44,234 bases of DNA from Kagunavirus NRG857CP3. Under the pieces are notes generated by a model. The model had not been told where the DNA came from. It did no database searches and saw nothing but the letters and a program-made list of their open reading frames with translations. The stretch lies in the sequence record OZ035734.1. One strand, 5' to 3'. A program made the position numbers and the translations under genes. Below are positions 1,293 through 32,854 of the stretch, piece by piece; the first letter of the stretch is position 1, and each line of letters opens with the position of its first letter.

Positions 1293-2774
1293 ATGTTAAC
1301 TATGAACGGTCAGAATCAGGGTGTTAAGACAAAACACCGGGAATGGCTGCATCACTTTGATAAATGGCAGAAGGTACGCCACGCGCTGGAAGGCGACCTT
1401 ATCCGCTACCTGCGCAACGTCGGGAAGAACGAACCGGACCCAACTTACGCGGCCCAGCGCCAGGATGAATACGAGAACGGCGCCATCTGCTACAACTTCA
1501 CCAAGCGCACCCTGTCGGGTATGGTTGGCTCAGTGATGCGCAAAGACCCTGAGCAGATTATTCCACCTGAACTGGAGTACCTGTTACGCAATGCCGACGG
1601 TTCCGGTGTTGGCCTGTGGCAGCACGCACAGGACACGCTGATGGAGATTGACTCGGTAGGCCGTGGCGGGTTGCTGGTGGACGCACCAGAAACAGCCGCA
1701 GCAACGGCGGCAGAGCAGAACGCGGGGTTATTAAACCCGGTCATCGCATTCTATACCGCAGAGAACATCATCAACTGGCGACTCACTCGCGTAGGGTCTG
1801 TTAACCGCGTTACGATGGTAGTGTTGCGCGAGGTATGGGAATATTCAGAACCCGGTGCTGAGTTTGAAACAAAGTTTGGTGAACAATATCGCGTCCTCGA
1901 CCTGATTGACGGGCGCTACCGCCAGCGCATATACCGCTTCGATGCGGAAGGTGGCGCGCAAGATGACGTAATCGAAATCTTCCCGGAACTGGGCGAACAG
2001 TTGCGCGGTAAAATCCCGTTCACGTTTATTGGCGCGAGCAATAACGATGCAACCGTCGATGACGCACCTTTGCTGCCGCTGGCAGAACTCAATATCGGGC
2101 ATTTCCGCAACAGTGCAGACAATGAGGAATCAAGTTTTGTAGTAGGCCAGCCGACTTTGTTCATCGCCCTCGGTGATAACATGAGCATGGAGCAGTGGAA
2201 AGAGGCCAACCCTCATGGTGTGCGCATGGGTTCACGTTCAGGCCACAACATTGGCTACGGCGGCAACGCGTTTCTGGTCCAGGCGGGAGAAAATAACCTG
2301 GCTAAACAGAACATGCTGGACAAGGAGAATCAGGCCATCCAGATTGGCGCGCAGCTTATCACACCTACACAGCAAATCACCGCTGAATCTGCCCGCCTGC
2401 AACGCGGCGCTGACACGTCCGTAATGGCGACTATCGCGCGTAACGTAAGCATGGCGTACACAGAAGCGTTGCGTTGGGTAGCAGCTATGCTTGGGCTACG
2501 CGAAGGCACGGAGATTGAGTTCAAGCTGAACATGGAGTTCTTCCTGCAACCGATGACCGCTCAGGACCGTGCGCAGTGGATGGCTGATATTAACGCAGGT
2601 TTACTACCCGCGACTGCTTACTACGCCGCGTTGCGTAAGGCCGGGGTAACTGACTGGACCGACGAAGAGATTACAACGGCTATTGAGGACGCACCTGTGC
2701 CGTTAGGTGCGGTTACTCAGGTAACTGGTGAGATTCCGCAGTCGGCACAACAGCAGGACGCCACCCAGCAATAA
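1293..2774 (+). CDS. portal protein
   Basis: 493 aa ORF immediately after terL, typical size and position; acidic Q-rich C-terminus. Confidence 0.75.
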   Translation: MLTMNGQNQGVKTKHREWLHHFDKWQKVRHALEGDLIRYLRNVGKNEPDPTYAAQRQDEYENGAICYNFTKRTLSGMVGSVMRKDPEQIIPPELEYLLRNADGSGVGLWQHAQDTLMEIDSVGRGGLLVDAPETAAATAAEQNAGLLNPVIAFYTAENIINWRLTRVGSVNRVTMVVLREVWEYSEPGAEFETKFGEQYRVLDLIDGRYRQRIYRFDAEGGAQDDVIEIFPELGEQLRGKIPFTFIGASNNDATVDDAPLLPLAELNIGHFRNSADNEESSFVVGQPTLFIALGDNMSMEQWKEANPHGVRMGSRSGHNIGYGGNAFLVQAGENNLAKQNMLDKENQAIQIGAQLITPTQQITAESARLQRGADTSVMATIARNVSMAYTEALRWVAAMLGLREGTEIEFKLNMEFFLQPMTAQDRAQWMADINAGLLPATAYYAALRKAGVTDWTDEEITTAIEDAPVPLGAVTQVTGEIPQSAQQQDATQQ

Positions 2775-2807
2775 AACTAAGGCCCCATAGGGGCCTTAGT
2801 TTTATTT
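2774..2807. terminator. bidirectional intrinsic terminator (palindrome AAACTAAGGCCCC-ATA-GGGGCCTTAGTTT)
   Basis: GC stem with A/T runs on both sides, between convergent portal (+) and moron (-). Confidence 0.7.
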
Positions 2808-3323
2808 AAATCGTACGGGCATTAGCACCATAAATGCTGAGTTTGAAAATGATATTTTGCATCCGCTGGTTTGATCCTGGAAATCGAAACGAGCAATTAC
2901 ATTTTTGTATGCCTTAGAAATCTTGTACGCGTCCGCTAAATACTGCATAGTGAATCCTATACTATCAACCACTCCTGGTGAGATGGACGCTATGCGCCTC
3001 CAGTCAGGAAAGTTTCCGTTTACAACATCTACCGGAAGTGTACATATAAGAGTACGACTATCGTCATAGAAAGAAACACTGCCGTTGGTGTGGTCCACCT
3101 CCGCGTAGTTAAATTTAGAAGGTTCTCTACCTTTGATGTCTATGAGAATCCCCTTCTCAACGTTTGTCTTCACATTGTCGCAGAACAACCTATGACCATC
3201 AGCAGAAACTATCAATCCTTCGGGGTCTATGTAAAAAGCATTCAAATAGTAGCGCACATCATTTTTAGCCCTGCAGATTTTCGCCCCTACATACGCAGGG
3301 AAAGTAATAACTGTAGTAATCAT
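2802..3323 (-). CDS. hypothetical protein (AT-rich moron, opposite strand inside structural module)
   Basis: 173 aa ORF on minus strand with own promoter-leader element and terminator; visibly lower GC than flanking genes. Confidence 0.55.
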   Translation of the reverse strand: MITTVITFPAYVGAKICRAKNDVRYYLNAFYIDPEGLIVSADGHRLFCDNVKTNVEKGILIDIKGREPSKFNYAEVDHTNGSVSFYDDSRTLICTLPVDVVNGNFPDWRRIASISPGVVDSIGFTMQYLADAYKISKAYKNVIARFDFQDQTSGCKISFSNSAFMVLMPVRFK

Positions 3324-3350
3324 TTTATGCCTCCTGTTTAATTTAACTGA

Positions 3351-3380
3351 ATAGTACCCTATTATATTGGTGTCTGCAAA
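3351..3380 (-). promoter_or_regulatory. sigma70-like promoter (TTGCAG-N17-TACTAT on minus strand) for moron 2802..3323
   Basis: Copy of conserved element CCAATATAATAGGGTACTATTC shared with promoters at 5237 and 14735. Confidence 0.5.
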
Positions 3381-3423
3381 TATTATTTTTATGCGTTACA
3401 CTGGCGATACTACAGGAGGGCCT

Positions 3424-4467
3424 ATGAGCTTACTAACTTCATTAATCAGCCACCAGATTTGGCTGCAGCGTACAGCATCCGGTGAAGTGAAAGACCTCGC
3501 ACCATTCATTCAGGAGATGCGTGATGAAATCAAACGGCAGGTGCTGCTATTTGGTGACGACGGGCGAAGCACCGCGCGGCTGAATAAACTGTTACGCGAC
3601 CTTGAAGACGCACTGACGGGGCTAACTGGCGACTGGCAAACGAAGCTGACAGAAGACCTTAAGGAGCTTGCAGCGTATGAGGCTGAGTGGAATGCGAAGA
3701 CACTCACGGCTAACGTTAATGCGGAATTTGTTACCCCGACCGCTGAACAGGTGTGGTCCGCCGCCGTGTTTCAACCACTGGCGATAAGCGAAAAGCCCGT
3801 TGACTTCACGAAGCTTATGGAAGGCTGGGGTGAAACGGAAGTAGCGCGCCTCGTTACCGGCGTTAAGATGGGCTTCGTGCAGGGCCAGACAACACGACAG
3901 ATTATCAAGAGCGTTGTTGGCAACGGTGGGCTATCGGATAAATCCGCCAACAACGCCGCCGTTGTAATCCGCACCGCTCTTTCGCACGTATCTAACGAAG
4001 CCCGCAACGAGACTTACAGGCAGAACAGCGACATCATCGAGAAATACGAGTGGGTGTCCACGCTTGACAGCCGTACCAGCACAATCTGCAAGGCCAGAGA
4101 CGGCATGACATGGGAAATCGGTAAAGGACCTATGCCGCCAGCCCATCCGAACTGCAGAAGTACCACTGCACCTGTAATCAGTTCAGAGTTCGACTTCCTC
4201 GACGCGGGCGCAAAACGTGCGGCTAAAGGCGCCGACGGTGGAACACAGGTTAGCGCGGATACCACTTACTACGAATTCCTGAAACAACAACCAGCGTGGT
4301 TTCAGGACCAGGCGTTAGGTCCGGTGCGGGGTAAGATTTTCCGCAACAGCGGTATATCACCAGAAGAGTTTCGCGTAATATCTGTAGATGGTTTCGGGAA
4401 TCCGCTCACGCTCAAGCAGATGGCGGAACTCGATAAACGTGTTGCTGATTATCTGAAAGGGGAATAA
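3424..4467 (+). CDS. head morphogenesis / minor capsid protein (SPP1 gp7 / Mu F-like placement)
   Basis: Position after portal; start chosen at ATG preceded by GGAGGG RBS (ORF track start 3367). Confidence 0.55.
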   Translation: MSLLTSLISHQIWLQRTASGEVKDLAPFIQEMRDEIKRQVLLFGDDGRSTARLNKLLRDLEDALTGLTGDWQTKLTEDLKELAAYEAEWNAKTLTANVNAEFVTPTAEQVWSAAVFQPLAISEKPVDFTKLMEGWGETEVARLVTGVKMGFVQGQTTRQIIKSVVGNGGLSDKSANNAAVVIRTALSHVSNEARNETYRQNSDIIEKYEWVSTLDSRTSTICKARDGMTWEIGKGPMPPAHPNCRSTTAPVISSEFDFLDAGAKRAAKGADGGTQVSADTTYYEFLKQQPAWFQDQALGPVRGKIFRNSGISPEEFRVISVDGFGNPLTLKQMAELDKRVADYLKGE

Positions 4468-4928
4468 TGATGGGCTTTTTCAAAGTAACTGATGTACCGT
4501 CGCGTCGCGTAGTCCAGTACGCCCGCGTGTCTGTCTCTGGCGAGAACGTGGTATTTATCGAAGACGAAAGTGTACTCGGTACACCAGTAGACGATATGCC
4601 GTTTGCGGATAAAACTGGCATTGCGCTGCCGGCGGCAGGTATGCTTTATGAGATTCCGTATCTGGCGGACGCTGGCGACGTATATTTCTCGGTGCAACCG
4701 CAGGACGCTGAACTGGCAGACGGCAGCGCAACTATCACGGTCGAAGTTAAGGCTGGCAAAGCACCATATGTGCTGACTTGGTACAAAGACGGTAAGGAAG
4801 TAGTAAACGCCCCGGAAGAGGCCTTGTCTCTGACGGTTAACGCAGTCGGTGAATACTTCGTTAAAGTTACTGATGCCGATGGTGTAGAGGCTGTTAGTAA
4901 AGCGGCGAAGGTTATTAAGCCTGAATAA
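4467..4928 (+). CDS. Ig-like domain structural protein (possible decoration protein)
   Basis: C-terminal motif YVLTWYKDGKEV typical of Ig-like I-set/Big domains; start overlaps upstream stop (TAATG). Confidence 0.45.
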   Translation: MMGFFKVTDVPSRRVVQYARVSVSGENVVFIEDESVLGTPVDDMPFADKTGIALPAAGMLYEIPYLADAGDVYFSVQPQDAELADGSATITVEVKAGKAPYVLTWYKDGKEVVNAPEEALSLTVNAVGEYFVKVTDADGVEAVSKAAKVIKPE

Positions 4929-4958
4929 ACTAAGGCCCCGAAAGGGGCCTTAGTTTCA
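4927..4958. terminator. bidirectional intrinsic terminator (AAACTAAGGCCCC-GAAA-GGGGCCTTAGTTT)
   Basis: Perfect palindrome, same family as 2774, 12279, 25044. Confidence 0.7.
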
Positions 4959-5207
4959 ATACCCAGTCTCTTGGGTTAAGTTAATCTCTTTATTCCAGAC
5001 GTTTCGGTCATACTTTTCACGAATCTGGCGCATACTTCTACCGAGCGCGGCGGATATAGACATATCCCCGTCTTCTTGCGCGTCCAGTTGCATCTGCTGA
5101 AGCTCAATATACGCCGAAATATCGCCGCGTAATTCGGCCTGTTCATACTCTTTTTTAAGAAAAGAACCAAGGTCCTGTACACGATGTTTTGCTGGTTTCG
5201 TAATCAT
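4956..5207 (-). CDS. hypothetical protein (moron)
   Basis: 83 aa minus-strand ORF with own promoter-leader and terminator; RBS GAGGAG. Confidence 0.5.
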   Translation of the reverse strand: MITKPAKHRVQDLGSFLKKEYEQAELRGDISAYIELQQMQLDAQEDGDMSISAALGRSMRQIREKYDRNVWNKEINLTQETGY

Positions 5208-5236
5208 TTCTTCTCTCCTCTTGTTGGTGTGAATGA

Positions 5237-5265
5237 ATAGTACCCTATTATATTGGGGTGTGCAA
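5237..5265 (-). promoter_or_regulatory. sigma70-like promoter (TTGCAC-N17-TACTAT, minus strand) with conserved leader ACACCAACAA
   Basis: Near-identical to elements at 3351 and 14735. Confidence 0.55.
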
Positions 5266-5287
5266 ACTATTTGTTTACGTATTCCAG

Positions 5288-5333
5288 TTATTCCACCGAA
5301 TTGTAAATGTTGGAATAAACTATTCGAATAGTT
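5288..5333. promoter_or_regulatory. inverted repeat TTATTCCA-N15-TGGAATAA followed by perfect 16-bp palindrome AACTATTCGAATAGTT overlapping the -35 box
   Basis: Read directly from sequence; half-site AATAG/CTATT shared with promoter-spacer palindromes elsewhere. Confidence 0.5.
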
Positions 5334-5360
5334 GACTTTTCACTAAAAATATGCTAAGCT
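5332..5360 (+). promoter_or_regulatory. sigma70 promoter TTGACT-N17-TAAGCT with extended -10 TG
   Basis: Paralogous to promoter at 36064 (identical -35, spacer pattern and -10). Confidence 0.6.
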
Positions 5361-5567
5361 CCACCTGAGCTTGTGAAGTATGAACAAGCGACCGCGGCGC
5401 GGGCAGGTAACGGAGCGGGACGTAAGTCCTGAGTGTAGTTACGCCGACGCGTTCGGAAGGGCCATACTATATTGCTTGTGTAAAAAGTAACTGGTTTACT
5501 GGGATTACGCCGTTTCTATGTTTAAATGATAAGGACTAGCGCCCCGCTTTATGGCGGGGCTTTACTT
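5361..5567 (+). ncRNA. candidate structured leader RNA / small RNA, copy 1
   Basis: About 105 nt core roughly 75 percent identical to copy at 36093; conserved hairpin GCTTGT..ACAAGC; ends at terminator 5538..5567. Confidence 0.35.
5538..5567 (+). terminator. intrinsic terminator (GCCCCGC-TTTATG-GCGGGGC + TTTACTT)
   Basis: GC stem plus U-rich tail just upstream of spanin gene. Confidence 0.55.
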
Positions 5568-5584
5568 ATCTAGAAAGGAGAAAC

Positions 5585-5971
5585 ATGAATCTTAAAGCAA
5601 CTGTCGTAGCGGGAGCATGTTTCATCATCCTTGCTTACGCACACGGCATCTACCAGTATCGCAGCGGCTGGAACGAAGGCCGGGCGAATCTCGTTTCGCA
5701 GCAACAGCAGAAAGCACAGGCTGAGTTAGCGAAGAAAACACAACGGCAGCAGCAAGATGAATCAAAGGCCGCAGCCGCTGACAACGAAGGCAAGACGAAA
5801 TCAGAGGTAATTACCCGTGAAGTCGTTAAGTACATTAAAACGCCTGGCCGCAGCGTGTGCACTTTCGACGATGCTCGCGTCCTGCTCAAGTCCCGCGCCG
5901 TCGCAAACGCCAATTCCATCCCCGGATACGACGATGATGCAACCACCGTGCAAACTGGCACCGCCAAGTAG
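5585..5971 (+). CDS. i-spanin (Rz-like)
   Basis: N-terminal TM helix, Q/K-rich coiled-coil periplasmic region; contains embedded out-of-frame lipoprotein ORF. Confidence 0.5.
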   Translation: MNLKATVVAGACFIILAYAHGIYQYRSGWNEGRANLVSQQQQKAQAELAKKTQRQQQDESKAAAADNEGKTKSEVITREVVKYIKTPGRSVCTFDDARVLLKSRAVANANSIPGYDDDATTVQTGTAK

Positions 5972-8242: not shown

Positions 8243-8593
8243 ATGGTTGATGTAATCAAGCGTCGCACCACCGGTGTAACTGACGACGGTCCGGCCGACG
8301 GTCAACTGGAAATCGACATGGTGAACATTTCACCTGCGTCTTTTTCTACCGCTTTGGCTGCCACTACGGCAGTAACCGCCGGGCAGACTATGACCCTGAC
8401 CGTAGTCGTTACTGGTGGTCTGGCACCGTACTCCTACCAGTGGTACAAAGATAACAACGCTATCGCTGGCGCAAACGCTGCTTCTTATGCGAAGGCGTCC
8501 ACTACTACCGCAGATTCAGGCACGTATAAAGTGGTTGTTCACGATGTGTATGGTAATATTATCTCCAGCAGCACTGTAGCAACTGTGTCTTAA
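8243..8593 (+). CDS. Ig-like domain protein (possible capsid or tail decoration)
   Basis: Motif YSYQWYKDNNAIAG, same Ig-like signature as 4467..4928. Confidence 0.45.
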   Translation: MVDVIKRRTTGVTDDGPADGQLEIDMVNISPASFSTALAATTAVTAGQTMTLTVVVTGGLAPYSYQWYKDNNAIAGANAASYAKASTTTADSGTYKVVVHDVYGNIISSSTVATVS

Positions 8594-8629
8594 TACAACG
8601 GCCCTTCGGGGCCGTAATAAGGAAAGGTC

Positions 8630-8809
8630 ATGGCAGATAATTATGTAATCCGCGAAAAGTACACCCACGTTGATATGGTTGATGGTCAGGTGATGCCAGT
8701 GCGCGGTGTTGTAGATGCGGATGAGCTTGTAGCAACGCAACCGGATAACGAAGAAGCGCTCAACAACGGCGGTGGTACTAAACGTCGTCGCCGTAAGTCA
8801 GAGGAATAA
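8630..8809 (+). CDS. small hypothetical protein (59 aa, basic C-terminus KRRRRK)
   Basis: ATG preceded by AAGGAAAGG; below ORF-track size cutoff; found by reading. Confidence 0.3.
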   Translation: MADNYVIREKYTHVDMVDGQVMPVRGVVDADELVATQPDNEEALNNGGGTKRRRRKSEE

Positions 8810-8812
8810 CTT

Positions 8813-9325
8813 ATGCCGCTAATCGTGGAAACGGGAGAAATCGTCCCTAATGCTGACAGTTACGTTAGCCTGGCTGACGCCCGCGCGTTAGCGGCTAATT
8901 ATGGTCTGGAGCTGCCGGAAGACGATACCGCCGCCGAAGTAGCCTTGCGCAACGGTGCTACTTATGTCGGGCTTGCAGAGCCGCAGATGTGCGGTCGCCG
9001 CGTATCTGCTGAACAGTCTCTTGCATACCCCCGCACAGGCGTAACGTTAAACGGATTCCCCGTAGCTAACAACGTCATCCCGAAGCAGGTGATTCTTGCG
9101 CAGGTAATCGCCGCTGCTACATATGGCGCAGGTACTGAGGTGCGGGCTAACTCAGATGGTCGCTCTGTGCAGACCGAGCGTGTTGAGGGTGCAGTAACCG
9201 TGACGTACTTCAACAACGGCAGCAGTGGTGCTACGACCGCGATTACCGCTGCGGACGACGCCTTACGCCCGTTACTGTGCGGCGGTCTTAACAATGGCTT
9301 CTCGTTTAACGTGTACCGGGGTTAA
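8813..9325 (+). CDS. putative head-tail connector / adaptor protein
   Basis: Position between capsid and tail genes only. Confidence 0.35.
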   Translation: MPLIVETGEIVPNADSYVSLADARALAANYGLELPEDDTAAEVALRNGATYVGLAEPQMCGRRVSAEQSLAYPRTGVTLNGFPVANNVIPKQVILAQVIAAATYGAGTEVRANSDGRSVQTERVEGAVTVTYFNNGSSGATTAITAADDALRPLLCGGLNNGFSFNVYRG

Positions 9326-9327
9326 AA

Positions 9328-9942
9328 ATGGCGAAGACTAAAACAGAGATGTTTACCCTTATTGGGGCAAATCTCCCGGACAACACCACCGGAGCTATTA
9401 CACCTGCGAAGCTACGCGAGGTAATGACTCAGATGGCGGACTCACCTATTTACGCCACTCCCGGTGTTAAAGAGGTTGAAGTTCTCCGTGCCGCGTCAAC
9501 CGTGGTACAAGCGCCTACCGCAGTAGATACAGCATTGCAGTTAACTTTCGGCTCTGCTCAGGGAAGCGTATCTGACCCGGTAATGATTAATGCGGCGGGG
9601 CTGGTTACGTTCAACACTGCGGGTAACTATGCCGTTCGCATCAAGTTACAGGCCGGGCGCACTGGGGCAAGCGGCACGTCTATTTTGTTATCACGCATTC
9701 TGGTAAACGGTGCTCAGTACGGCTCACCGGCAGCTACGAAACTGGTAAGTGCCGACACCACAATCCCGATTGAGTCTCGCGTTGTTATTAACCCGACCGC
9801 GGGCCAGACGTTTGCCGTTCAGATTATGCGAGATAGCGCCGGAAGCAACTTCGGCGGCGTATACCCGCAAGCGGCTACCGTAACTGCATGGGGCACAGCA
9901 CCGTCGGCGCTACTGGTTATCTCGAGACTGGAGGCCGCGTGA
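9328..9942 (+). CDS. structural protein (head-tail joining region)
   Basis: Gene order, tight coupling. Confidence 0.35.
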   Translation: MAKTKTEMFTLIGANLPDNTTGAITPAKLREVMTQMADSPIYATPGVKEVEVLRAASTVVQAPTAVDTALQLTFGSAQGSVSDPVMINAAGLVTFNTAGNYAVRIKLQAGRTGASGTSILLSRILVNGAQYGSPAATKLVSADTTIPIESRVVINPTAGQTFAVQIMRDSAGSNFGGVYPQAATVTAWGTAPSALLVISRLEAA

Positions 9943-12278: not shown

Positions 12279-12308
12279 AACTAAGGCCCCAAACGGGGCC
12301 TTTTTCTT
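12279..12308. terminator. bidirectional intrinsic terminator (AACTAAGGCCCC-AAAC-GGGGCC-TTTTTCTT)
   Basis: Same palindromic family; between major tail gene (+) and island (-). Confidence 0.7.
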
Positions 12309-12861
12309 ACAAACCTAATTTTAAAGCAATGTCTACAACGTTCGATTTAACATCACCTGGTATGATGTATGTGTCGTAATCTTTTACACCGATAACATCA
12401 TACAGATACTCCCTGCTATCGCCGATGAACGTATAACCGTCCCGGTGCAAGCGAACAATTCGCACGTCATGCCCCGCGGCGACGATAGGGGCTACTTCGC
12501 TGGCGAACCCGCCATCGGACACTACAAAAACTTCGTCGCCGTCTGGCAAGTTTTCAGCAAGATACTTACCGAAATAATCATCGCCGAATACCGGTTTAAT
12601 GAACTGTTCAGAGATAGCAATCATGAATTGACGGCGAGACAAGCCATTAAGGAAACATTCTGGCTTTTCTTTCCGCGCTCGGTCGTCGTAGCCGTCGAGA
12701 AATTCGTGGTAAGCATCCGGGCCTAACGCGGCCAGAGCAATATTGAACATTGGATTCTTGAAACTGGTAGTTCCCTTCGCAAAGCCCATCTCTACCAGCG
12801 CCCTAGCAAGCGTGTCTTTCCCGCAACCCGCAGGGCCATTAAGAATAATTACCTTAGCCAT
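12307..12861 (-). CDS. P-loop nucleotide kinase, dNMP kinase-like
   Basis: Walker A GPAGCGKDT at N-terminus; later block FVVSDGGF...GHDVRIVRLHRDG resembles T4 gene 1 dNMP kinase pattern (recalled, not searched). Confidence 0.6.
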   Translation of the reverse strand: MAKVIILNGPAGCGKDTLARALVEMGFAKGTTSFKNPMFNIALAALGPDAYHEFLDGYDDRARKEKPECFLNGLSRRQFMIAISEQFIKPVFGDDYFGKYLAENLPDGDEVFVVSDGGFASEVAPIVAAGHDVRIVRLHRDGYTFIGDSREYLYDVIGVKDYDTYIIPGDVKSNVVDIALKLGL

Positions 12862-13346
12862 TATTTATCGCTCCCGTGTGATTTTAAGTGTGTAGAGTTC
12901 CCATTACAGTCGTATTCAGTAACCGCGTGAGTGGTTATACCGAGTCCGCGGAAATGCTTTATTACCGCCGGAGAGTCGTCGAACGCACACAAGATTCTTT
13001 CCAGCCCGATAGCGCGCAACACTTCTTCTTTAATTACAATGTCTTTTCTGTTGTCGTGTTTGCTGCGCATGATTAGCTGATAAAATTCGACGCGGTGGCG
13101 CTGCAACCACATTCTGGTTTCTTTTTCTGCGTCATCACTGCGGCCGGTTAAAATAATAACGGCATAGCGACGATTAAGGGCGTTACACAGTTCGATGTTA
13201 TCTTTAATCGGCGCATCATCTTTGCACGCCATGTTAAAGGGCTTCCATGCCCATGTTTCGTTGTAGTTATCTTTCGGCAACAGGTGTAAGCGATGCGTAC
13301 CGTCTGCTAATGTTCCATCTAAATCGAAAATAACAATATCTTTCAT
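12861..13346 (-). CDS. HAD-superfamily phosphatase, polynucleotide kinase 3'-phosphatase-like
   Basis: N-terminal DLDGTLA (DxDGT) motif, TGR, NRKDIVIKEEV and AFDDSP blocks resembling T4 Pnk phosphatase domain (recalled). Confidence 0.65.
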   Translation of the reverse strand: MKDIVIFDLDGTLADGTHRLHLLPKDNYNETWAWKPFNMACKDDAPIKDNIELCNALNRRYAVIILTGRSDDAEKETRMWLQRHRVEFYQLIMRSKHDNRKDIVIKEEVLRAIGLERILCAFDDSPAVIKHFRGLGITTHAVTEYDCNGNSTHLKSHGSDK

Positions 13347-14473
13347 CCCAGCATCTCCGGTGAAATAGTTAAACGTGCGACCTCGCCATATTCGGCGCTA
13401 TAAGTAATTACATTTGCACTACGGCCTGACATCCATCCGCCGCGAGAGGCGTAGGCGTCTTTAGCCGCTAAGGTGCGGTGCTGCTCAACAATCATGTTAC
13501 GGCTTTCCACAATCTTCTGATGGTGCAGGTGACCTACGTGAGCGTAGCTGTAAACACTCTCGCCGAACGCTTTGCGAAACTTGGCAATCATAACAGGCTC
13601 GATTGCGTCGAATCGTGCTTTATGGCCGTGGTGGAAAAACAGTGTCGTTTTGCCGTGTTGCACCATCTTATATACGTCCGGCGACGTATCGACAATCACC
13701 CGGCTGTCGTTTGCATATAAAGTTGTGAACATCTCTGCCAACCACACGGAGCCTACAGGGTCGTGGTTTCCTTGCACAACTAGCAGCTTCACGGTTTTAT
13801 GCTTAACCAGCGCCATATCTACAACACGGCGTACCATGCGAATCATGTAGCGGACAAGCTTCTGGTAGCGCGTGTCGGCGTCAAGGACGTGGCGTGACTC
13901 CGGTGTAACGGCGTCCAGACTATCGAAGTGTGCGAAGTCGCCAAGCAGGTTAATAACCCCTGTTCCCGCGTCCGGCGCTCTCTGGAATGCCGCGTCGAAC
14001 CATCGAGAGAACAGGTCTTCCGCAATTTTCATATCCCAGTCATCGCCGCTCTCGTCGGCCCACGCCAGCATACCGAGATGGAAATCAGACACGGTGTACA
14101 GGTTAAGCAGCTTATCGTCGCGTTTGGTACGGGCGGCCTTCACTGGGGCTACCGGGGTAATCTCCGACTTCATGCCTTCGATTACGGCTTTCATCAACTC
14201 AACCTGACGTTCGGCGTCTGTATCGGTCTTAACCCACTGCAACTTAGTGTTTCCGAACTCGTCCACCAGAGACGACGTACCCTTAATCTTGTATCCATCC
14301 GGCACAAGGTGGCTTACGTCGCGCCCGTGGCCTACACCCTTCTTAGCCAGCTTCGCTTTACGGATGCGGATAACGCGGTCTGAGATGCCGTATTTACGGG
14401 CGATATCGATATTCTTCATCCCGGCGTTCAATTCTTCCTGTAATTGCTCGTCGGTTATTTTCTTCTGGGCCAT
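13343..14473 (-). CDS. HTH domain fused to calcineurin-like metallophosphoesterase (Mre11/SbcD/CpdA-type motifs)
   Basis: Motifs DFH, LLGDFAHFD, QGNHD, FHHGH, HVGHLHH; N-terminal HTH-like segment NIDIARKYGISDRVIRIRKAKL; start set at ATG after GAGGAAG (ORF track 14578). Confidence 0.65.
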   Translation of the reverse strand: MAQKKITDEQLQEELNAGMKNIDIARKYGISDRVIRIRKAKLAKKGVGHGRDVSHLVPDGYKIKGTSSLVDEFGNTKLQWVKTDTDAERQVELMKAVIEGMKSEITPVAPVKAARTKRDDKLLNLYTVSDFHLGMLAWADESGDDWDMKIAEDLFSRWFDAAFQRAPDAGTGVINLLGDFAHFDSLDAVTPESRHVLDADTRYQKLVRYMIRMVRRVVDMALVKHKTVKLLVVQGNHDPVGSVWLAEMFTTLYANDSRVIVDTSPDVYKMVQHGKTTLFFHHGHKARFDAIEPVMIAKFRKAFGESVYSYAHVGHLHHQKIVESRNMIVEQHRTLAAKDAYASRGGWMSGRSANVITYSAEYGEVARLTISPEMLG

Positions 14474-14511
14474 GCTTACTTCCTCGTGTTTAGGATTTGT
14501 CTTATAGTAGC

Positions 14512-14703
14512 CTACTTCTCTTTCACGTTCGAGTTGCAAGCCCAGATTAAAATGAATACCCACGGCAACAGAACCCACCCTAGAAATAAGTTAGCCATGA
14601 ATATCGCCAGCTTTGCTTTATGGTTACGGAAGTAGGCAACTAAAAAAGGCGCAAAGTACGCGAGCAGTGCAAACAGGATTAAGGAAATCGGTAAACTGGA
14701 CAT
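14512..14703 (-). CDS. small membrane protein (two predicted TM helices)
   Basis: 63 aa hydrophobic ORF, first gene of island transcript, RBS GAAGGGG. Confidence 0.45.
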   Translation of the reverse strand: MSSLPISLILFALLAYFAPFLVAYFRNHKAKLAIFMANLFLGWVLLPWVFILIWACNSNVKEK

Positions 14704-14734
14704 TTTAAAACCCCTTCATTGTTGGTGTAAGCGA

Positions 14735-15290: not shown

Positions 15291-15655
15291 ACGCGCTGTA
15301 CAGGTTCGCCACCTATGAGTTCGTGGATAAGCATAAAATCAGAGAATTTGATTCTATAGCCGACGGACACGAACAGGCGCTTATCGCGATGGGTGTAATC
15401 GATAAGAAAAAACGTGCAGCGCGACGGGGTGGGCCAGAATGTCCGCCCCTTTTCATATCCACCTTTGAAACGTATTGCGACATTAAGTTTACGCGACACG
15501 TGCGTGATGACGCGGTAGTATTGTTTGCAAGAGAATCCGTAACGTGGCAAGACCTGAAAGCCTATCTCGACGTCACACAGAAACAGCTTAGCCTGTTTGA
15601 GATAGACATTATCATGGGCCTAGAAGCAATCTTTGAAGGTAGAAATCATGGCTGA
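15272..15655 (+). CDS. tail assembly chaperone frameshift extension (GT-like, putative -1 programmed frameshift)
   Basis: Frame -1 relative to 14871 ORF is open from 15272; ORF-track start 15323 is GTG with no RBS; candidate slip site GGAAAAG at about 15281..15287. Confidence 0.4.
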   Translation, partial: SVTGKVDALYRFATYEFVDKHKIREFDSIADGHEQALIAMGVIDKKKRAARRGGPECPPLFISTFETYCDIKFTRHVRDDAVVLFARESVTWQDLKAYLDVTQKQLSLFEIDIIMGLEAIFEGRNHG

Positions 15656-17921
15656 TACCGCTAGTTTGATAGTACGAGTATCTTCGACCGGCGTCGATAA
15701 AACAACATCTCAACTGAACGGGCTTACTAAGGCTGCGGGGGCTGCCGCCGCTGCCGTCGTCAGTCTGGAAACCGCTAAGCAGGTGTTCAGTGCGCTGGTG
15801 GACTCTCAGCGCAACTTCGATAAGCTGAACTCCGGCCTCATCACAATGACCGGGAGCGCCGAGAACGCGGCAAAGGCTTTCAGCGTACTGCAACAGTTTG
15901 CTAAAGAAACCCCATATGGTCTTAACCAGGCGGTAGAGGGATTTACCAAGCTCGTGGCGCTCGGGCTTAACCCCAGCAAAGAGGCGTTAATCTCCTACGG
16001 CAACACCGCCGCAGCGATGGGTAAAGACCTTAACCAGATGATTGAGGCAGTTGCTGACGCCAGTACATTTGAATTCGAGCGTTTAAAAGAGTTTGGCATC
16101 AAGTCGTCACAGCAGGCTGATACTGTTTCGTTCACGTTCCGTGGCGTAACTACCACGGTTAAGAAGAACTCCGAAGAAATTCAGAAATACCTGCTAAACA
16201 TCGGTAACACTGATTTTGCGGGGGCGATGGAAACGCGTTCGAAAACCCTTGACGGGCAGTTGTCGAGCCTGGCGGACTCATTTGACGGTCTTGTGCTCGC
16301 CGTGGCGCAATCAGGTTTCGGGGATGCGGTAGGCGAACAAGCCGCAACAGCAGAAGATGCTATCACGGCACTCACCGACGCAATTGCGTCTAATGAGATA
16401 GCTGCTACGCTCCAGGATTGGGTGACGCTGTTCAATGAGTCGTTCAAGTTCATTTCTGACGCTTTGAACGATTTGGCATACGACACGGAAGGCAAATCGG
16501 CGGACATGTCCGACTCGCTTGGCACAATCCCTGATGCCATCCGTGAGTGGTTGCCGGATATCCAGCAGACATTCCACGAGGTTATTGCATGGTTTCAGCG
16601 CATTGATGATTATGCCGTAGCGTTAGGCCAGACTCTTGCTGACGTGTTTGACCCGAGCAAAACGGCAGCGCTCACATTTAAAAACCTGACCGCAGAGGCT
16701 GACGCCGCATACGCCGCCAGCATAAAACGCGCAGCGGCGGAGTCCCAGGCCATTACCGACAGGTCTAAGCAGCGTAAGAAAGAAATTAAGGAACAGCGCA
16801 AGCAGTATGACGAGCGCAAGAAGCAAGAAATTGACTTAGCCAGCCTTGTTAATAAAAAGGGTGGAACGGAAGGCACTGGAAACGCCGACGATAAAGCGAC
16901 AAAAGCAGCCGCTAAGAAAGCAGAACAATTGCGGAATCAGGCGCAAGATTACCTCGACACTTTGGCCCGTCAGAACAACGACGAGTTAAAGGCTATTGAC
17001 GCGCAGGAACAGCAGAAACTGGCTAAAGCGAAAGAGTTCTACAGTCAGGGTGCGCTATCGTTAAAAGAGTACGAACAGGCTAAAACCGCCATTGTTCTTG
17101 AAGCAGGGCAAAAACGGCAGGATGAACTGGATAAACGCCAGAAGGAGGCCCAGGAAAAGCAACAGAAAGGTGATGATTTCATGGCTCAGATTATGGGCCA
17201 GAACGCCACCGAGCTTGAGCTTCTGGATATTCAGGAACAGCAGAAACTGGCGGTAGCCGATAAGTACCGAGAACAAGGTCTTATTAGCGAGAAGCAATAT
17301 CAGGCTGCGCTTAGCGCCATCAACGAGCAGTACGCAACCAAGCGTGCTGACGCAACGGCAACAGCTTTTGGCAACATGGCTTCTAACATTGGATCCGCGT
17401 TAGGTGAAGCATCCGGCGCTTATAAGGCGTTCGCTATTGTGCAGGCCACTATCGCTACGTACACTGCAGCTATTGAAGCGTATAAGTCAACGGCCGCTAT
17501 CCCGGTTGTTGGGCCATTCCTTGCACCAGTAGCCGCTGCCGCTGCCGTTGGGGCAGGTATGGCGCAGGTTTCTGCTATCAGGTCTGCACGTGAACAGGGT
17601 GGTCAGTTATCCGCGGGCCAAGCGTCTACCATCGCGGAACGAGGTAAACCTGAGGTCATCATGCCCGCTGGGGCATCGCGAGTGCGCACCGCGCAACAAA
17701 TGAAAGAGATTATGGGGCAAAACGGGTCTTCTTCCGGCCCATCTAATGTTACCATCGTAAACAACACGAGTTCGCAAATCGGCAACGTGTCTACCGAGCA
17801 GGATGATGAAGGGCGTCTGCGCATCATCATCGAGGAACAGGTAGCCGCCTCTTTGCAGAACAGTAACAGTAAGATTAGCAAGGCCCGCAAGGCCACAAGA
17901 AACGCGCCGGGGTTCAAATAA
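15648..17921 (+). CDS. tail tape measure protein
   Basis: Largest alpha-helical/coiled-coil ORF after chaperones; start at ATG after GAAGG RBS (ORF track TTG at 15633). Confidence 0.8.
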   Translation: MADTASLIVRVSSTGVDKTTSQLNGLTKAAGAAAAAVVSLETAKQVFSALVDSQRNFDKLNSGLITMTGSAENAAKAFSVLQQFAKETPYGLNQAVEGFTKLVALGLNPSKEALISYGNTAAAMGKDLNQMIEAVADASTFEFERLKEFGIKSSQQADTVSFTFRGVTTTVKKNSEEIQKYLLNIGNTDFAGAMETRSKTLDGQLSSLADSFDGLVLAVAQSGFGDAVGEQAATAEDAITALTDAIASNEIAATLQDWVTLFNESFKFISDALNDLAYDTEGKSADMSDSLGTIPDAIREWLPDIQQTFHEVIAWFQRIDDYAVALGQTLADVFDPSKTAALTFKNLTAEADAAYAASIKRAAAESQAITDRSKQRKKEIKEQRKQYDERKKQEIDLASLVNKKGGTEGTGNADDKATKAAAKKAEQLRNQAQDYLDTLARQNNDELKAIDAQEQQKLAKAKEFYSQGALSLKEYEQAKTAIVLEAGQKRQDELDKRQKEAQEKQQKGDDFMAQIMGQNATELELLDIQEQQKLAVADKYREQGLISEKQYQAALSAINEQYATKRADATATAFGNMASNIGSALGEASGAYKAFAIVQATIATYTAAIEAYKSTAAIPVVGPFLAPVAAAAAVGAGMAQVSAIRSAREQGGQLSAGQASTIAERGKPEVIMPAGASRVRTAQQMKEIMGQNGSSSGPSNVTIVNNTSSQIGNVSTEQDDEGRLRIIIEEQVAASLQNSNSKISKARKATRNAPGFK

Positions 17922-19318
17922 TGAGCGACTTATATTTCCCACGTAGCCTTAAGCCTATTGTGTCAAAAGGCTACTCAATGACCCGACGTAACAACGTCTG
18001 GAGTGTTGATTTAGCTGGTGGTGGCGTCCGTCAGGGGCGCGACACCTATTATGATGTGTTCCCCATTAGTGTGACGCTTATCACCTCCGCGATGGGGAGA
18101 CAGGCGTTTCTGTCGTTCCTTGAGAAAGTAGACGGCGGCGCGTCCAGTTTCTGGATGGCCAACGACTTTGGCATGGGTATCGAGGATTACCAGGTAACAA
18201 TTACGTCCACCATCGCAGAGTCCACCGAAGACGGGATTAACTGGACGATTACTTTCACGGCAACCGCCGAGAAATCGCCGTTCCAGGACCTTGAGAACCA
18301 GTGCCTGATTAACAATCTGCCAGATTTGTACGGCTGCTATGGCGATTGCCTGGGTAGTTTCCTTAAGATATACGCGAACTATGAAACGACGTTCCCTCGT
18401 ATCTGGAGTAACGAAGGACCTGCCGGTTACCCTCCGATTAACCTTCTGGCGTCGACTCTTGATAGCCGTATCGTTTACGAAGGGCCGCAGGTGTACTACA
18501 TCAACAGAAACGGCAATCTTGTACAATCCGCAGCCAATGAATGGCCTCTTACGTTTATTGATGGTGTTGCTGTTGGGCGTGTGCCACCAGAGGTGGCATC
18601 GTCTAATATTCTAGTTAAATCATCTCAATTATCTGACTCATCCTGGAGTAAAACTAGCACAACGGTAGCTAGCATCGCCGACTCGATTATTAACGGCGGC
18701 GCATTTTCTTTAACCCCAACACTCACCAATGGCAACCATATCGTACAGCAATCAGTGTCTTCCGCTTTTGCGGAGGGAGATACATACACGCTCAGTTACT
18801 TGGCTAAGGCGAATGGCTATAATTATGCACGCCTACGGGCCGCCGATGACGCGGGGTTTATTTCCGATTGTAGGGCAAATTTAGCCGACGGAACCATTTC
18901 TGCGGGCGCGGCACAAAGTACCATCGTTTCTTGCGGGAACGGATGGTACAGATTTACAGAAACAGTCGCGGTCAAAACCGGCGGCGCATCTTCTCTACTT
19001 TTAGCAGCCTGGGTGTACGATAATTCGCAAGCCGCCTCTTTTCCCGGGGATGGTGTCAGCGGTGTTCTTGCGTGTGCAATGCAAATAGAAAAAGCTGCGT
19101 TCGCAACATCACCAATAGTAACCGACGCAGCGCCAGTTACACGTCAGGCTTCATCGGCAAAAGTAGCAATGAATGGTGCAACAAGCATCGACATTACCTA
19201 CTCCGACGGCTCTACCGTAAACGTGCCCGCAGTAGATAACTACGCTGTTATCCCGCAGGCGGATTCTGCGTGGGGAAGTAAGTATATCACTCGTATCGAC
19301 TTTAATGTGGACGGTTAA
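17921..19318 (+). CDS. minor tail protein / distal tail protein with C-terminal extension
   Basis: Gene order after tape measure, overlapping start. Confidence 0.45.
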   Translation: MSDLYFPRSLKPIVSKGYSMTRRNNVWSVDLAGGGVRQGRDTYYDVFPISVTLITSAMGRQAFLSFLEKVDGGASSFWMANDFGMGIEDYQVTITSTIAESTEDGINWTITFTATAEKSPFQDLENQCLINNLPDLYGCYGDCLGSFLKIYANYETTFPRIWSNEGPAGYPPINLLASTLDSRIVYEGPQVYYINRNGNLVQSAANEWPLTFIDGVAVGRVPPEVASSNILVKSSQLSDSSWSKTSTTVASIADSIINGGAFSLTPTLTNGNHIVQQSVSSAFAEGDTYTLSYLAKANGYNYARLRAADDAGFISDCRANLADGTISAGAAQSTIVSCGNGWYRFTETVAVKTGGASSLLLAAWVYDNSQAASFPGDGVSGVLACAMQIEKAAFATSPIVTDAAPVTRQASSAKVAMNGATSIDITYSDGSTVNVPAVDNYAVIPQADSAWGSKYITRIDFNVDG

Positions 19319-27317: not shown

Positions 27318-27445
27318 TCAAGCACCCACAGATAAATCGCGATGAACATACCTAATACGGCGACCATCATGCCGTATTGGCCCTCGTGACAGTAGACACC
27401 GGCGGCAAACCCCGCCAGTACCGCAATACTCAGTTTACTTAGCAT
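27314..27445 (-). CDS. small hydrophobic ORF (43 aa, predicted membrane peptide)
   Basis: Found by reading; overlaps 3' end of polymerase gene; coordinates approximate. Confidence 0.2.
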   Translation of the reverse strand: MLSKLSIAVLAGFAAGVYCHEGQYGMMVAVLGMFIAIYLWVLE

Positions 27446-29687
27446 AACGCTTCATCTCCGCACCTTCCGCGACAAGAGGGAAGCCTTCTGCCCATTCCGG
27501 TAATTCGCACATCAATCGCCCCAGTTCAGCTACATTGTATTCCGGTAAATCCGGTGTCTCGCAGATAATTTCGTCATGTACGTGAAGCACAATCGGATAG
27601 CCGTTTGCTTCGACGTTCAGCAGCGCATTAGCCAGCAAATCACGGCACAGCGCCTGCGTGCAGTTTTCCACCAGTTTACCGGAGTAGGTGTACTGGAACC
27701 CCCACTGACGGGTTAACTGGTTTTCACCCTGGTACTTGATGCGCACGTTAGTTGACACCTTTCCATCTTCGTCTGTCTCTTTCGACACGCTTAACCCGAT
27801 GCCCGGGTAAGACATAACGCGACCCGACGGCAACGTCATGCGCAACCACCAACCAGCGACTTTGTTGCCGTTGTTGTCTGTCTCCACGTTACGCGAAAAC
27901 TTGACCCCCCGCGGCCCTGCAGTAAACTCTTTGCCAGGATTTCGGATAGCCGCCATTGCCGCGTCTTCAATATCCCGCCAGAAAGCTACGGTTTCCGGGT
28001 GGGACTCGCGCCACATACGCTTGATAGCGTCACAGGTACGCCACACTTTCTTATCAAGAATATACGAGGGTCTGTCATCCTTTTCGCCAGGACGTGGGGG
28101 GCGCTTAGCCTCCTGAATACGCGCCCACTCGTATCCGCGTGCGGTAGCAGCCCATATATGGTCAGGGAATGTCCCTTCCATTGTTTTTGCCATATCAACA
28201 AGGTTTAAGCCGAGGTTCTTAGCAAACTGAACGAAAGCACCGACACCGCCCGCGTAGCCGAGGCCCAATTCACAGGCTTTACCAATCTGGCGTAGGTCAC
28301 TACGGCTTTCGAGAATGTAATCAGGGTCCATGCCGAACATCTTACCCGCCGTTACGCAGTAAATATCCAATCCAGCACGGAAGGTATCCAGCGCGGTTTC
28401 TTCACCAGCAAGCCACGCAAGCCCACGGCCTTCGACGTTAGAGTAATCGGCGACGACAAACTTATGTCCGGATTCCGGTATGATGCAGCTACGCACCGTA
28501 GATGCCGTTAGTTTGGCTACATCAAAACGGCGATGTGCACGGCCTTTAAACAACAGGTCGATTCCGTAGGACAATGGGTGTGTTACTCGCCACCAGTCCT
28601 TCTCTGACATCCAGTCATAACGTACTTTCTTCTTTTTATTCTTCGGGTCGTCGTGATAGTACCCGCGCGCGAGGTTCTGCGGCTGGAAGCCTTTACCAGC
28701 AAATCGTAACGTACGCTTAGCTCCACCGTACTGGATGCAACCACGACGGCGGTCGTCAGACGAGCGGCCCAACAGCAGCGGGTTATATTTCGTTGACGCC
28801 GTGGACGCGGCCCCGAGGCGCATTTCGATAATCGTGCGGGCATCGTCAGGTAAATCATCGTCCGCCAACAAGTCATTCAGCGTTGACTTCTGTGCGTTGT
28901 GGATCCGGTGCGCAGGCGCAAGTTCACGCAGAATAGGCAGGAAATCTTTACCAGTAAGCGACCCGCCGTATTTGCGCTGGGCTTCCTCCTGTAACTGTGC
29001 CTTGTGCTTCTCCACGGCTTCAATCGCGGCTTCCGCCAGCGCGACGTCAACCTTAAACCCACGGTCGTTGATTAACTGGTCCAGTTCCAGTACGCGGTCC
29101 TCGAACTCGGAGTTACCCCAACGCGGTAGCTTATGGAATACTTCTCGCATCGCAGTGATGTCGCTCACGGCGTACTTGATAAACAAAGCCCACTCGTCTG
29201 GGTGTGTTTCGGCGGTGTAACGGCGGATTTTGTAGTTCTTCGGTGTCGGTTTAGAGAAACGCTTAATCAGTGCCTTGCCGCGTTTATCTTTCGCGTTGTC
29301 GGCGGATACGCCAAACACTTCGCACAATGCGTCAAGTGAACCCGGCAGCGCGTGACGAAACGCCCAAATCATCGTATCAATGGTGTTGCTTACAGGAATA
29401 TCAAAGCCCCAGCAATGTTTCATGATGAGACGATCGAACATTGAGCCGTTGTGCCACACCATCTTGATGCGACTGTTCGGTTTCACCAGACGGCGTAACG
29501 CGCGGTGCAAATCTCCCGGCATGTCGCTGCCGTCGGTGCAATCCCATACCTGTACAGGCTCGTCGTCAAAGGCATATGTGCAGATAAGCACTTCGGTTGA
29601 CGGGTGTTCGGCGTAAGCATAGGAACCGACTTTCTTTAAATCGATGTCGCTGTAGGTTTCAAAGTCTAAGAAGAGTAATTCTGGCAT
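27435..29687 (-). CDS. DNA polymerase I family (family A) with N-terminal 3'-5' exonuclease domain
   Basis: Exo I motif LFLDFETYS at N-terminus; 750 aa; C-terminal HVHDEI-type block. Confidence 0.85.
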   Translation of the reverse strand: MPELLFLDFETYSDIDLKKVGSYAYAEHPSTEVLICTYAFDDEPVQVWDCTDGSDMPGDLHRALRRLVKPNSRIKMVWHNGSMFDRLIMKHCWGFDIPVSNTIDTMIWAFRHALPGSLDALCEVFGVSADNAKDKRGKALIKRFSKPTPKNYKIRRYTAETHPDEWALFIKYAVSDITAMREVFHKLPRWGNSEFEDRVLELDQLINDRGFKVDVALAEAAIEAVEKHKAQLQEEAQRKYGGSLTGKDFLPILRELAPAHRIHNAQKSTLNDLLADDDLPDDARTIIEMRLGAASTASTKYNPLLLGRSSDDRRRGCIQYGGAKRTLRFAGKGFQPQNLARGYYHDDPKNKKKKVRYDWMSEKDWWRVTHPLSYGIDLLFKGRAHRRFDVAKLTASTVRSCIIPESGHKFVVADYSNVEGRGLAWLAGEETALDTFRAGLDIYCVTAGKMFGMDPDYILESRSDLRQIGKACELGLGYAGGVGAFVQFAKNLGLNLVDMAKTMEGTFPDHIWAATARGYEWARIQEAKRPPRPGEKDDRPSYILDKKVWRTCDAIKRMWRESHPETVAFWRDIEDAAMAAIRNPGKEFTAGPRGVKFSRNVETDNNGNKVAGWWLRMTLPSGRVMSYPGIGLSVSKETDEDGKVSTNVRIKYQGENQLTRQWGFQYTYSGKLVENCTQALCRDLLANALLNVEANGYPIVLHVHDEIICETPDLPEYNVAELGRLMCELPEWAEGFPLVAEGAEMKRYAK

Positions 29688-32638: not shown

Positions 32639-32854
32639 ATGCAACCATCTGAACTAGGCATCCGTGTAGAACAACGCCGTAAAGAACTCGGCATCTCCCA
32701 GCGCCGTCTGGCTGTCCTGACCGGAGTTTCCCAGGGCGCAATTAACCAGCTGGCACTCGGCGTAACTCAGGACGTCCGCCCGGCAACGCTGTTTAAACTG
32801 GCGGAAGTGCTGGAAGTAGACGCCAAGTGGCTGGCGTTTGGTGAAGGGGCTTAA
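32639..32854 (+). CDS. XRE-family helix-turn-helix transcriptional regulator (Cro/CI-like)
   Basis: HTH signature ISQRRLAVLTGVSQGAINQL; RBS AAGGAG. Confidence 0.8.
   Translation: MQPSELGIRVEQRRKELGISQRRLAVLTGVSQGAINQLALGVTQDVRPATLFKLAEVLEVDAKWLAFGEGA

Follow-up and report, generated by a model that had tools for sequence, protein, structure and literature searches.

The complete or near-complete genome of the Escherichia coli phage Kagunavirus NRG857CP3, a K1G-like siphovirus of the Guernseyvirinae (sequence record OZ035734.1; 44,234 nucleotides, hereafter the window), contains at 2802-3323 on the minus strand a gene whose 173-amino-acid product, judged by sequence and predicted fold, is a truncated homologue of the bacterial beta sliding clamp (DnaN, 366 amino acids). 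In this protein, here called mini-beta, domain II of the clamp, which has lost its second channel helix, is joined to the C-terminal half of domain III. As the hub on which the proteins of bacterial replication and repair dock, the beta clamp has a central role and is also an antibiotic target. We tentatively propose, with somewhat less than even confidence, that phages have repeatedly spread this pocket-only miniature of the clamp as a soluble mimic of the hub, which would capture clamp clients (for example delta, Hda, MutL/MutS or translesion polymerases) and in this way rewire replication or repair in the host, or else supply the phage fork with host enzymes. The identity of mini-beta thus shifts the hypothesis on its function from a generic exclusion or anti-defence role, as suggested in a preliminary description of this DNA, to proteins that carry clamp-binding motifs.

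The preliminary description had seen no recognisable motif in the protein, but homology searches and structure prediction led to a different result. PHROG 3007 matched mini-beta over its full length (E 8.7e-35), PHROG 947, named 'DNA polymerase processivity factor', matched residues 20-112, and a phmmer search against PDB sequences found the E. coli beta clamp in three collinear pieces. In these, residues 16-48 of the query correspond to beta 144-179 (DVRYYLN ... DGHRL), residues 99-117 to beta 235-253 (VxGxFPDxRR) and residues 117-171 to beta 312-365 (IGF..Y ... MPxR); the C-terminus, LMPVRFK, is the equivalent of VMPMRL in E. coli. A hidden Markov model (HMM) built from 55 family members recovered E. 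coli DnaN with an E-value of 1.3e-29, and the copies in close relatives are annotated as 'DNA polymerase III sliding clamp'. The score with TIGR00663 was 15.8 bits and thus below the cut-off of 137.65, Pfam-A gave no match at E <= 0.1, and NCBIfam and PADLOC returned nothing usable, with no PADLOC match at E <= 1.

The AlphaFold2 model calculated with 137 homologues reached a predicted local distance difference test score (pLDDT) of 96.7 and a predicted template modelling score of 0.91; an earlier model with 14 homologues had a pLDDT of 78.8. Foldseek aligned the 173 residues to the E. coli clamp over ~256 columns, which implies a match from beta ~126 to the C-terminus with ~80 residues skipped, in agreement with the sequence mapping. 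The predicted secondary structure consists of a strand, a helix and three strands, then a strand and three strands without a helix, and again a strand, a helix and three strands, and the second channel-lining helix of domain II is replaced by the short loop KGxEPxKF. Only beta 137-253 and 315-366 are retained, whereas domain I, beta ~254-311 (the half of domain III which forms the dimer interface, including I272/L273) and the second helix of domain II are missing. In sum, mini-beta has the clamp-domain fold of two beta-alpha-beta-beta-beta units per domain together with homology to DnaN, it does not have the three complete domains (~366 amino acids) scoring above curated thresholds, and the two segments of the head-to-tail dimer interface, the edge of domain I and the N-terminal half of domain III, are both absent from its sequence. 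Without the missing domain I, interface half of domain III and channel helix, mini-beta cannot form a canonical two-subunit ring.

What is left of the clamp is centred on its docking pocket. Clamp clients bind by QLxLF-type peptides, the clamp-binding motifs, which are present in Pol III alpha, clamp-loader delta, Hda, Pol II/IV/V, MutS/MutL and others, and the hydrophobic pocket that receives them is situated on the sheet that domain II builds together with the C-terminal strands of domain III. From this topology, the retained piece would be the minimal unit that presents the pocket. Subsite I of the pocket is made of R152, L155, T172, G174, H175, R176, L177, P242, R246, V247, V360 and M362, and subsite II of H175, N320, Y323, V344, M362, P363, M364 and R365 (PMC11139829). 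Every one of these residues falls within the segments retained by mini-beta, with R24, L27, G43, H44, R45, L46, P106, R110, I111, Y128, V166, M168, P169 and R171 as equivalents in the query, and by sequence both subsites are present. Conservation was determined in 220 distant members of the family, all with below 45% identity to the query, and is given in E. coli beta numbering: R152 and G174 were found in 99%, P242 in 98%, M362 in 94%, L155 and T172 in 92%, P363 in 90%, R365 in 86%, H175 in 84%, Y323 in 82%, R246 in 80% (plus 15% K), V247 in 70% and N320 in 65% (plus 19% D). The mean frequency of the top residue over all positions was 38%, and nowhere is the protein better conserved than at the pocket residues. 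Nearly invariant in the family, too, is the DNA-contact loop motif D150-x-R152-Y-Y154.

Mini-beta is not restricted to Kagunavirus. An HMMER scan of 1.84 billion representative proteins, clustered at 50% identity, revealed 224 family clusters at E <= 1e-10, the best 150 of which span 72-229 amino acids, mostly 165-215. With tblastn, 228 phage isolates from several phage families were found to carry a member, their hosts being Salmonella, Escherichia, Klebsiella, Vibrio, Burkholderia and others, and neighbours in BFVD are phage proteins of 163-250 amino acids labelled 'DNA polymerase III beta' or unnamed. The genomic contexts are diverse. Dhillonvirus phages (TheodorHerzl, EP23, SO-1) carry a lone antisense family gene within the head module. 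In T1-like phages (Bas81 and an E. coli contig) it comes last in an antisense island that is flanked by head and tail genes and also encodes a ParB-like protein and sometimes a C5 methylase. Other phages have it among early genes with a methylase, and further ones in the replication module, where it immediately follows SSB and has PolA, an N6/N4 methylase or MT-A70 nearby; one prophage-like element carries a family member, too. A functional link to the methylases, by analogy to DNMT1-PCNA, was considered and not adopted, because the Kagunavirus copies have no adjacent methylase and methylases are common in early and replication regions; it is kept as a lead. The 125 homologue records from plasmids turned out to be full-length plasmid DnaN of ~425 amino acids and not the short family. 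In large Klebsiella and Citrobacter plasmids this divergent DnaN (8482-9759 and 8536-9804 in two records) lies beside genes for Dam methylase, rdgC, dinG and ssb, a block which is an unexplored plasmid replication or establishment module unrelated to mini-beta.

The family is thus already annotated, but functionally unexplored and partly mis-annotated. Literature searches gave no experimental study of any short family member, and genome papers only repeat the label 'sliding clamp'. PHROG 3007 and PHROG 12598 bear the label 'RusA-like Holliday junction resolvase', which has spread in many RefSeq and GenBank records with Pharokka-type annotations (for example NC_016566.1, NC_054645.1, NC_054649.1 and PQ850630.1). 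A RusA resolvase was rejected as identity of mini-beta, since no RusA Pfam match was found and all structural neighbours of the model are sliding clamps; the label appears to be a propagated mis-annotation.

The gene itself is located exactly as first described, as an opposite-strand open reading frame (ORF) of 173 codons between the portal gene (1293-2774; DUF4055, PHROG 145) and a head-morphogenesis gene of the Mu-F/SPP1-gp7 type. The latter was called mechanically at 3367-4467 from a TTG at 3367, but its true start is most likely the ATG at 3424, with AGGAGG at 3414-3419 and a PHROG alignment that begins at residue 20; this start likely leaves a divergent intergenic region of 100 bp which contains the antisense promoter described below. 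The low guanine-plus-cytosine (GC) content also noted before was confirmed by calculation: it is 41.4% for the mini-beta ORF (0.41 for the whole cassette, see below), compared to 55.1% for the portal gene, 53.2% for the head-morphogenesis gene and 50.9% for the genome, and GC at third codon positions is 42.5% versus a mean of 53.5%. With this value mini-beta ranks third lowest among ~60 genes (z = -1.9). Other small early-type genes of the phage have 38-44% and are thus like mini-beta; the low GC is a mark of this gene class and no proof of foreign origin. The surrounding operon, described as otherwise co-directional, is only roughly so, since the opposite orientation recurs in a further cassette at 4952-5279 and in an island at 12307-14703 (-). 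This third island within the tail-gene block is headed by the same type of promoter as mini-beta and encodes a superinfection-immunity homologue (14512-14703, PHROG 1039), a 411-amino-acid protein like DNA-repair exonucleases/phosphatases (13343-14578, PHROG 704) and two further ORFs.

That the gene has its own promoter and terminator had been claimed as well, and computational evidence for both was obtained. A hairpin at 2770-2806 has a perfect 17-bp stem, AAUAAAACUAAGGCCCC-AUA-GGGGCCUUAGUUUUAUU, with T-runs on both strands, and probably acts as a bidirectional intrinsic terminator; it overlaps the stop codons of the portal gene and of mini-beta. The folding energy is -25.9 kcal/mol on the plus and -26.4 kcal/mol on the minus strand (z = -7.0 and -5.9), and none of 200 shuffled sequences was equally stable. 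A terminator scan missed the hairpin, because the T-run belongs to the stem, and it was revealed by folding. The stem sequence is found again at 4931-4955, and the record of phage Snoke annotates a two-way terminator beside its copy of mini-beta. A search of 2600-5700 with Rfam gave only sub-threshold sraL-like matches, which are caused by terminator hairpins. At the other end of the gene, the sequence AGGAGG at 3330-3335 (-), 6 nt before the ATG (3323-3321), reads as a ribosome-binding site (RBS), and RBSs before mini-beta are annotated in the records of Shashou and Snoke. Further upstream, a sigma-70-like module extends over 3351-3379 (-), with TTGCAG as -35 element (3374-3379), a spacer of 17 nt and TACTAT as -10 element (3351-3356).

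This module became visible when the region upstream of mini-beta in the window was aligned with those of the Shashou and Snoke copies and with that of an unrelated ORF of 83 codons, all of which share the invariant block CCAATATAATAGGGTACTATTCA. A simple scan for the sigma-70 consensus with a threshold of 9 matching positions out of 12 found no promoter upstream of mini-beta; the conserved module agrees with the consensus at only 7-8 of 12. In the window the block lies at 3348-3370 and includes AATAG-N4-CTATT, an inverted repeat. When up to 3 mismatches are allowed, the 23-mer occurs four times in the genome, compared to none expected by chance: an exact second copy is at 5234-5256 and copies with 2-3 mismatches are at 14732 and 36381. 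Five sites share TTGC(A/G)(C/G)-N17-TACTAT, at 3351, 5237 and 14735 on the minus and at 36385 and 37872 on the plus strand. The modules stand 25-35 nt ahead of an RBS and ATG and head mini-beta, the 83-codon ORF, the superinfection-immunity homologue (PHROG 1039) and, in two cases, a cluster of small ORFs of early type. Furthermore, the promoter core is identical before four different cargo genes in five phages. We therefore infer from its recurrence that the TTGCAG-N17-TACTAT module works as a promoter. As it is shared with small early-gene clusters and the superinfection-immunity gene, mini-beta is probably expressed early and without dependence on the late operon, and the gene would belong to an early or constitutive programme rather than to that of the surrounding late genes. 

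The phage-wide promoter family has the conserved core TATAATAGnnTACTATTCA with the same inverted repeat, and related sites are at 30432, 32548 and 32592 on the plus and at 43300 on the minus strand. Shortly before a Cro-like gene (32639-32854) there are two copies of a variant that lacks the -35 element and is followed by GTCAA, and the core with its inverted repeat may be an operator for this regulator. A promoter of another kind was seen at 5300-5570 (+), where a sigma-70-like sequence (TTGACT-17 nt-TAAGCT, ~5333-5361) and an intrinsic terminator (5541-5560) bracket ~200 nt before the spanin genes; the annotation of Shashou has only a 36-codon ORF in the corresponding region. The stretch from promoter to terminator (5352-5570) folds unremarkably (z = -1.6) and had no above-threshold match in Rfam.

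Terminator, cargo gene, RBS and promoter together form an inserted cassette at 2775-3422 (-), as defined by the break points of blastn alignments with K1G, Snoke and Shashou, which occupies the entire space between the portal and the head-morphogenesis gene. Over 2500-3700, the window shares 91.5% identity with Escherichia phages Shashou and Sciku; 83 phage records match this region, and a mini-beta copy with at least 80% identity is present in ~22. Homology to K1G ends at 2774 and restarts at 3423, so that 68 bp in K1G face 648 bp in the window. Snoke and many others have the same cassette, including terminator and promoter (window 2779-3384, 89.5% identity), ~2 kb further on between a Hoc-like decoration gene and the spanins. 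The gene is therefore not found at the same position in all relatives, the site being empty in K1G and the copy of Snoke-type phages lying elsewhere. In the window, the site used in Snoke-type phages is a second hot spot and is taken by a sister cassette (4952-5279, minus strand) with the same terminator stem and promoter core and the 83-codon ORF (4956-5207) as cargo. This ORF had no match in Pfam, PHROG, NCBIfam or PADLOC and only 5 phage records contain homologues of it (phiWAO78-1, Bas101, Cronobacter CS01/SG01), and the sister cassette is absent from K1G and Shashou. The first site also accepts other cargo, namely an ORF of 93-94 codons in CR01 and EF2-1 and two small ORFs in UTEC10, all antisense and all behind an identical promoter module.

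Between the window and Snoke, the synonymous divergence (dS) of mini-beta was 0.37, compared to 0.76 for the portal and 0.88 for the Hoc-like gene, indicating that the cassette moved between lineages more recently than the backbone diverged. The ratio of nonsynonymous to synonymous divergence (dN/dS) was 0.16-0.30 for mini-beta, 0.02-0.04 for portal and 0.05-0.10 for the Hoc-like gene. Mini-beta is thus under purifying selection, albeit looser than that on portal and Hoc-like genes, and with hundreds of homologues in addition it is not a chance ORF. It is an accessory gene, horizontally shuffled within Kagunavirus. Of the interpretation as a moron, the antisense unit with its own signals, the low GC, the variable presence and the exchangeable cargo stood; the motif-less protein did not. 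Inteins are further evidence for heavy traffic of mobile elements in the genus: Snoke has one of 273 residues in its head-morphogenesis gene (1677-3536) and Shashou one with a homing endonuclease in its helicase gene (16886-19267), both absent from the window phage.

How might such a protein act? The reading we lean towards, although we would put it below an even chance, is an early-expressed, ring-less pocket module which captures host proteins with clamp-binding motifs in competition with host beta. Unmodified host RNA polymerase would transcribe the gene from its sigma-70-type promoter, and mini-beta would be a free, ring-less copy of the docking pocket that binds host clamp-binding-motif proteins off the clamp. 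Clients with functions in replication control, clamp loading, repair or translesion synthesis could be diverted or silenced, favouring the phage. PolA, a gp2.5-like SSB, a Cas4-like nuclease and a helicase-primase are encoded by the window phage as well as by Shashou and TheodorHerzl, and the Kagunavirus replisome of family-A polymerase, gp2.5-like SSB and helicase-primase needs no clamp. In the family-A polymerase of the window (27435-29687 (-), 750 amino acids), residues ~468-562 match the endonuclease phrog_93, which suggests a nuclease-like module inserted in the polymerase. That a pocket without a ring can be an effective trap follows from E. coli beta, which is made monomeric by mutation of I272/L273 and as monomeric variant binds delta ~50-fold tighter than the ring does (PMC11139829). 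A search of protein termini in the window phage and five further carriers revealed no canonical clamp-binding motif, a result that speaks for partners from the host. Internal strict motifs, QVLLF at residue 58 of the head-morphogenesis protein and QLSLF at residue 88 of the ORF 15323-15655 (+), which overlaps the region of the tail-assembly chaperone, are probably coincidence (~0.2 expected by chance) and were dismissed. Manipulation of beta-clamp interactions by phages has precedents, since MuC of phage Mu has a clamp-binding motif (PMC12867686) and Gp168 of Twort plugs the clamp channel. A role of mini-beta in host interaction is plausible.

Several observations weigh against capture of host clients. 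The literature searches gave no binding or phenotype data for any family member. The pocket residues are also the best conserved ones in genuine clamps, and a collection made with profiles favours sequences that keep them; pocket conservation is thus necessary, but not sufficient, for peptide binding. T1-like phages such as Bas81, in whose genome no DNA polymerase is annotated anywhere, have the family gene and must use host Pol III, so that a general trap for Pol III or delta would be harmful to them. The isoelectric point (pI) is 8.3 for the query and 7.7 as family median, compared to 5.25 for E. coli beta, and lysines on the helix face (K20, K70, K134, K137) are moderately conserved; both fit DNA binding better than a purely soluble decoy. 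Finally, in some phages the family gene lies in the replication module beside SSB and PolA.

The latter facts suit a DNA-bound adaptor or non-ring processivity factor like herpesvirus UL42: attached to phage DNA by a basic helix face, mini-beta would bring a polymerase or maturation enzyme to forks by means of its pocket, helping phage replication rather than poisoning the host; candidate partners are host Pol III in the polymerase-less T1-like phages and host Pol I, ligase or phage PolA in Kagunavirus. We regard this as the main rival to client capture, although unlikely on balance. The occurrence in T1-like phages without annotated polymerase, the copies directly after SSB and near PolA, the pI of 7.7-8.3 with partly conserved helix lysines and the nearly invariant DNA-contact loop all speak for it. 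However, the gene is dispensable in Kagunavirus, being absent from K1G and most of the 83 related records, and in three phage groups it lies in antisense accessory islands among structural genes, away from replication genes. Besides, phage PolA, helicases and SSB lack a canonical clamp-binding motif, one of the three channel-facing helices is deleted, and monomeric E. coli beta cannot confer processivity (PMC11139829). A genuine sliding clamp assembled from four chains is even harder to reconcile with the data, and we give it little credence. The arithmetic would fit, as three beta-alpha-beta-beta-beta units per chain times four make the 12 units of a ring, the number of subunits varies between lineages (beta is a dimer, PCNA and gp45 are trimers), and published genome papers call the protein a sliding clamp. 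But the retained units are an N-terminal half and two C-terminal halves, whose head-to-tail packing would break the alternation, a channel helix is deleted and the canonical interface segments are absent; the window phage encodes no clamp loader, and AlphaFold2 predicts, in a single-chain model, a compact monomer with very high confidence.

The anti-defence moron of the preliminary description can be given a mechanism, too: a decoy whose pocket mimics host beta and absorbs or misleads an immunity or exclusion factor which docks on the clamp or senses forks. In line with this, the gene resides in an accessory hot spot where different cargos follow one promoter, the same that drives a superinfection-immunity gene, its dN/dS of 0.16-0.30 exceeds the 0.02-0.10 of neighbouring genes, and in several phages it travels with DNA methylases and ParB-like genes. 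Nevertheless, it is an improbable explanation: PADLOC gave no match, though its library holds defence and not anti-defence proteins, the literature searches revealed no defence system that relies on the clamp-binding motif, and the strong conservation of a generic pocket suggests a housekeeping partner rather than a fast-evolving immune target. We know of no defence system dependent on the clamp-binding motif. A decaying, functionless fragment of a captured dnaN, as half the length of the parent gene, the accessory nature and the atypical GC might suggest, is effectively refuted, and we attach almost no probability to it. It is contradicted by the dN/dS, by the uniform length of 165-230 amino acids in the 224 clusters, by the carriage in 228 phage isolates of several families, by the pLDDT of 96.7 and by the gene's own RBS, promoter and terminator.

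Whatever its partners, a natural half-clamp that is predicted to be stable, keeps only the docking pocket and occurs in hundreds of enterobacterial phages would correct widespread annotations as 'DNA polymerase III beta subunit', which imply a working clamp, or as 'RusA-like resolvase'. If capture of clients by the free pocket proves true, it would be a new class of host takeover, in which a hub is mimicked rather than inhibited and its clients are stolen or redirected, and mini-beta would offer a minimal 19-kDa pocket scaffold for inhibitor screening. Pocket mimicry of a replication hub is a sharp hypothesis that can be tested cheaply. Moreover, the cassette system of Kagunavirus, a fixed frame of terminator and promoter with exchangeable cargo at two hot spots in the head-gene operon, is a good place to seek further host-interaction genes.

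Compared to known systems, mini-beta is closest to DnaN itself (E. coli P0A988; PF00712/PF02767/PF02768; TIGR00663), to which its domain II and its C-terminal half of domain III are related in both sequence and fold; it also retains the signature motifs that supply the pocket (DVRYYLNG, TDGHRL, DGxFPDxRRV, IGFNxxY and the C-terminal MPxR). Unlike DnaN, it is basic and not acidic, phage-encoded, accessory, of half the length and below the thresholds of TIGR00663 and Pfam. For a protein reduced to the pocket, the best functional analogy may be the engineered monomeric E. coli beta (I272A/L273A), likewise a ring-less chain with an intact pocket, which still binds partners (PMC11139829). This variant, however, is a laboratory mutant with all three domains and without processive synthesis; a natural counterpart was not described in the literature searched. 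Within PHROG 3007, mini-beta is a clear full-length member, but the 'RusA-like' label of this group conflicts with all fold and homology results.

Processivity factors that do not form rings are known from herpesviruses (UL42 of HSV-1, UL44 of CMV, PF-8 and BMRF1). They have two complete domains, no detectable sequence similarity to mini-beta and are essential partners of the cognate viral polymerase, whereas mini-beta is dispensable and the phage PolA has no canonical motif. The clamp inhibitors Gp168 of Twort and ORF240 of G1 as well as MuC of Mu share the theme of a phage that manipulates the beta-clamp hub, but they are unrelated to mini-beta and bind the host clamp, while mini-beta would imitate the clamp and bind its clients. 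Finally, the mini-beta cassette resembles morons as an autonomous unit of promoter, gene and terminator with deviant GC within a late operon, variably present and with alternative cargos. Morons are classically defined by expression from a prophage, whereas Kagunavirus phages have been isolated as lytic phages and are not known to be temperate, and no integrase is found in the annotation of Shashou; the classical definition would not apply to such a virulent-type phage. Unlike in morons, the promoter of mini-beta comes from the phage's own promoter family and is not foreign.

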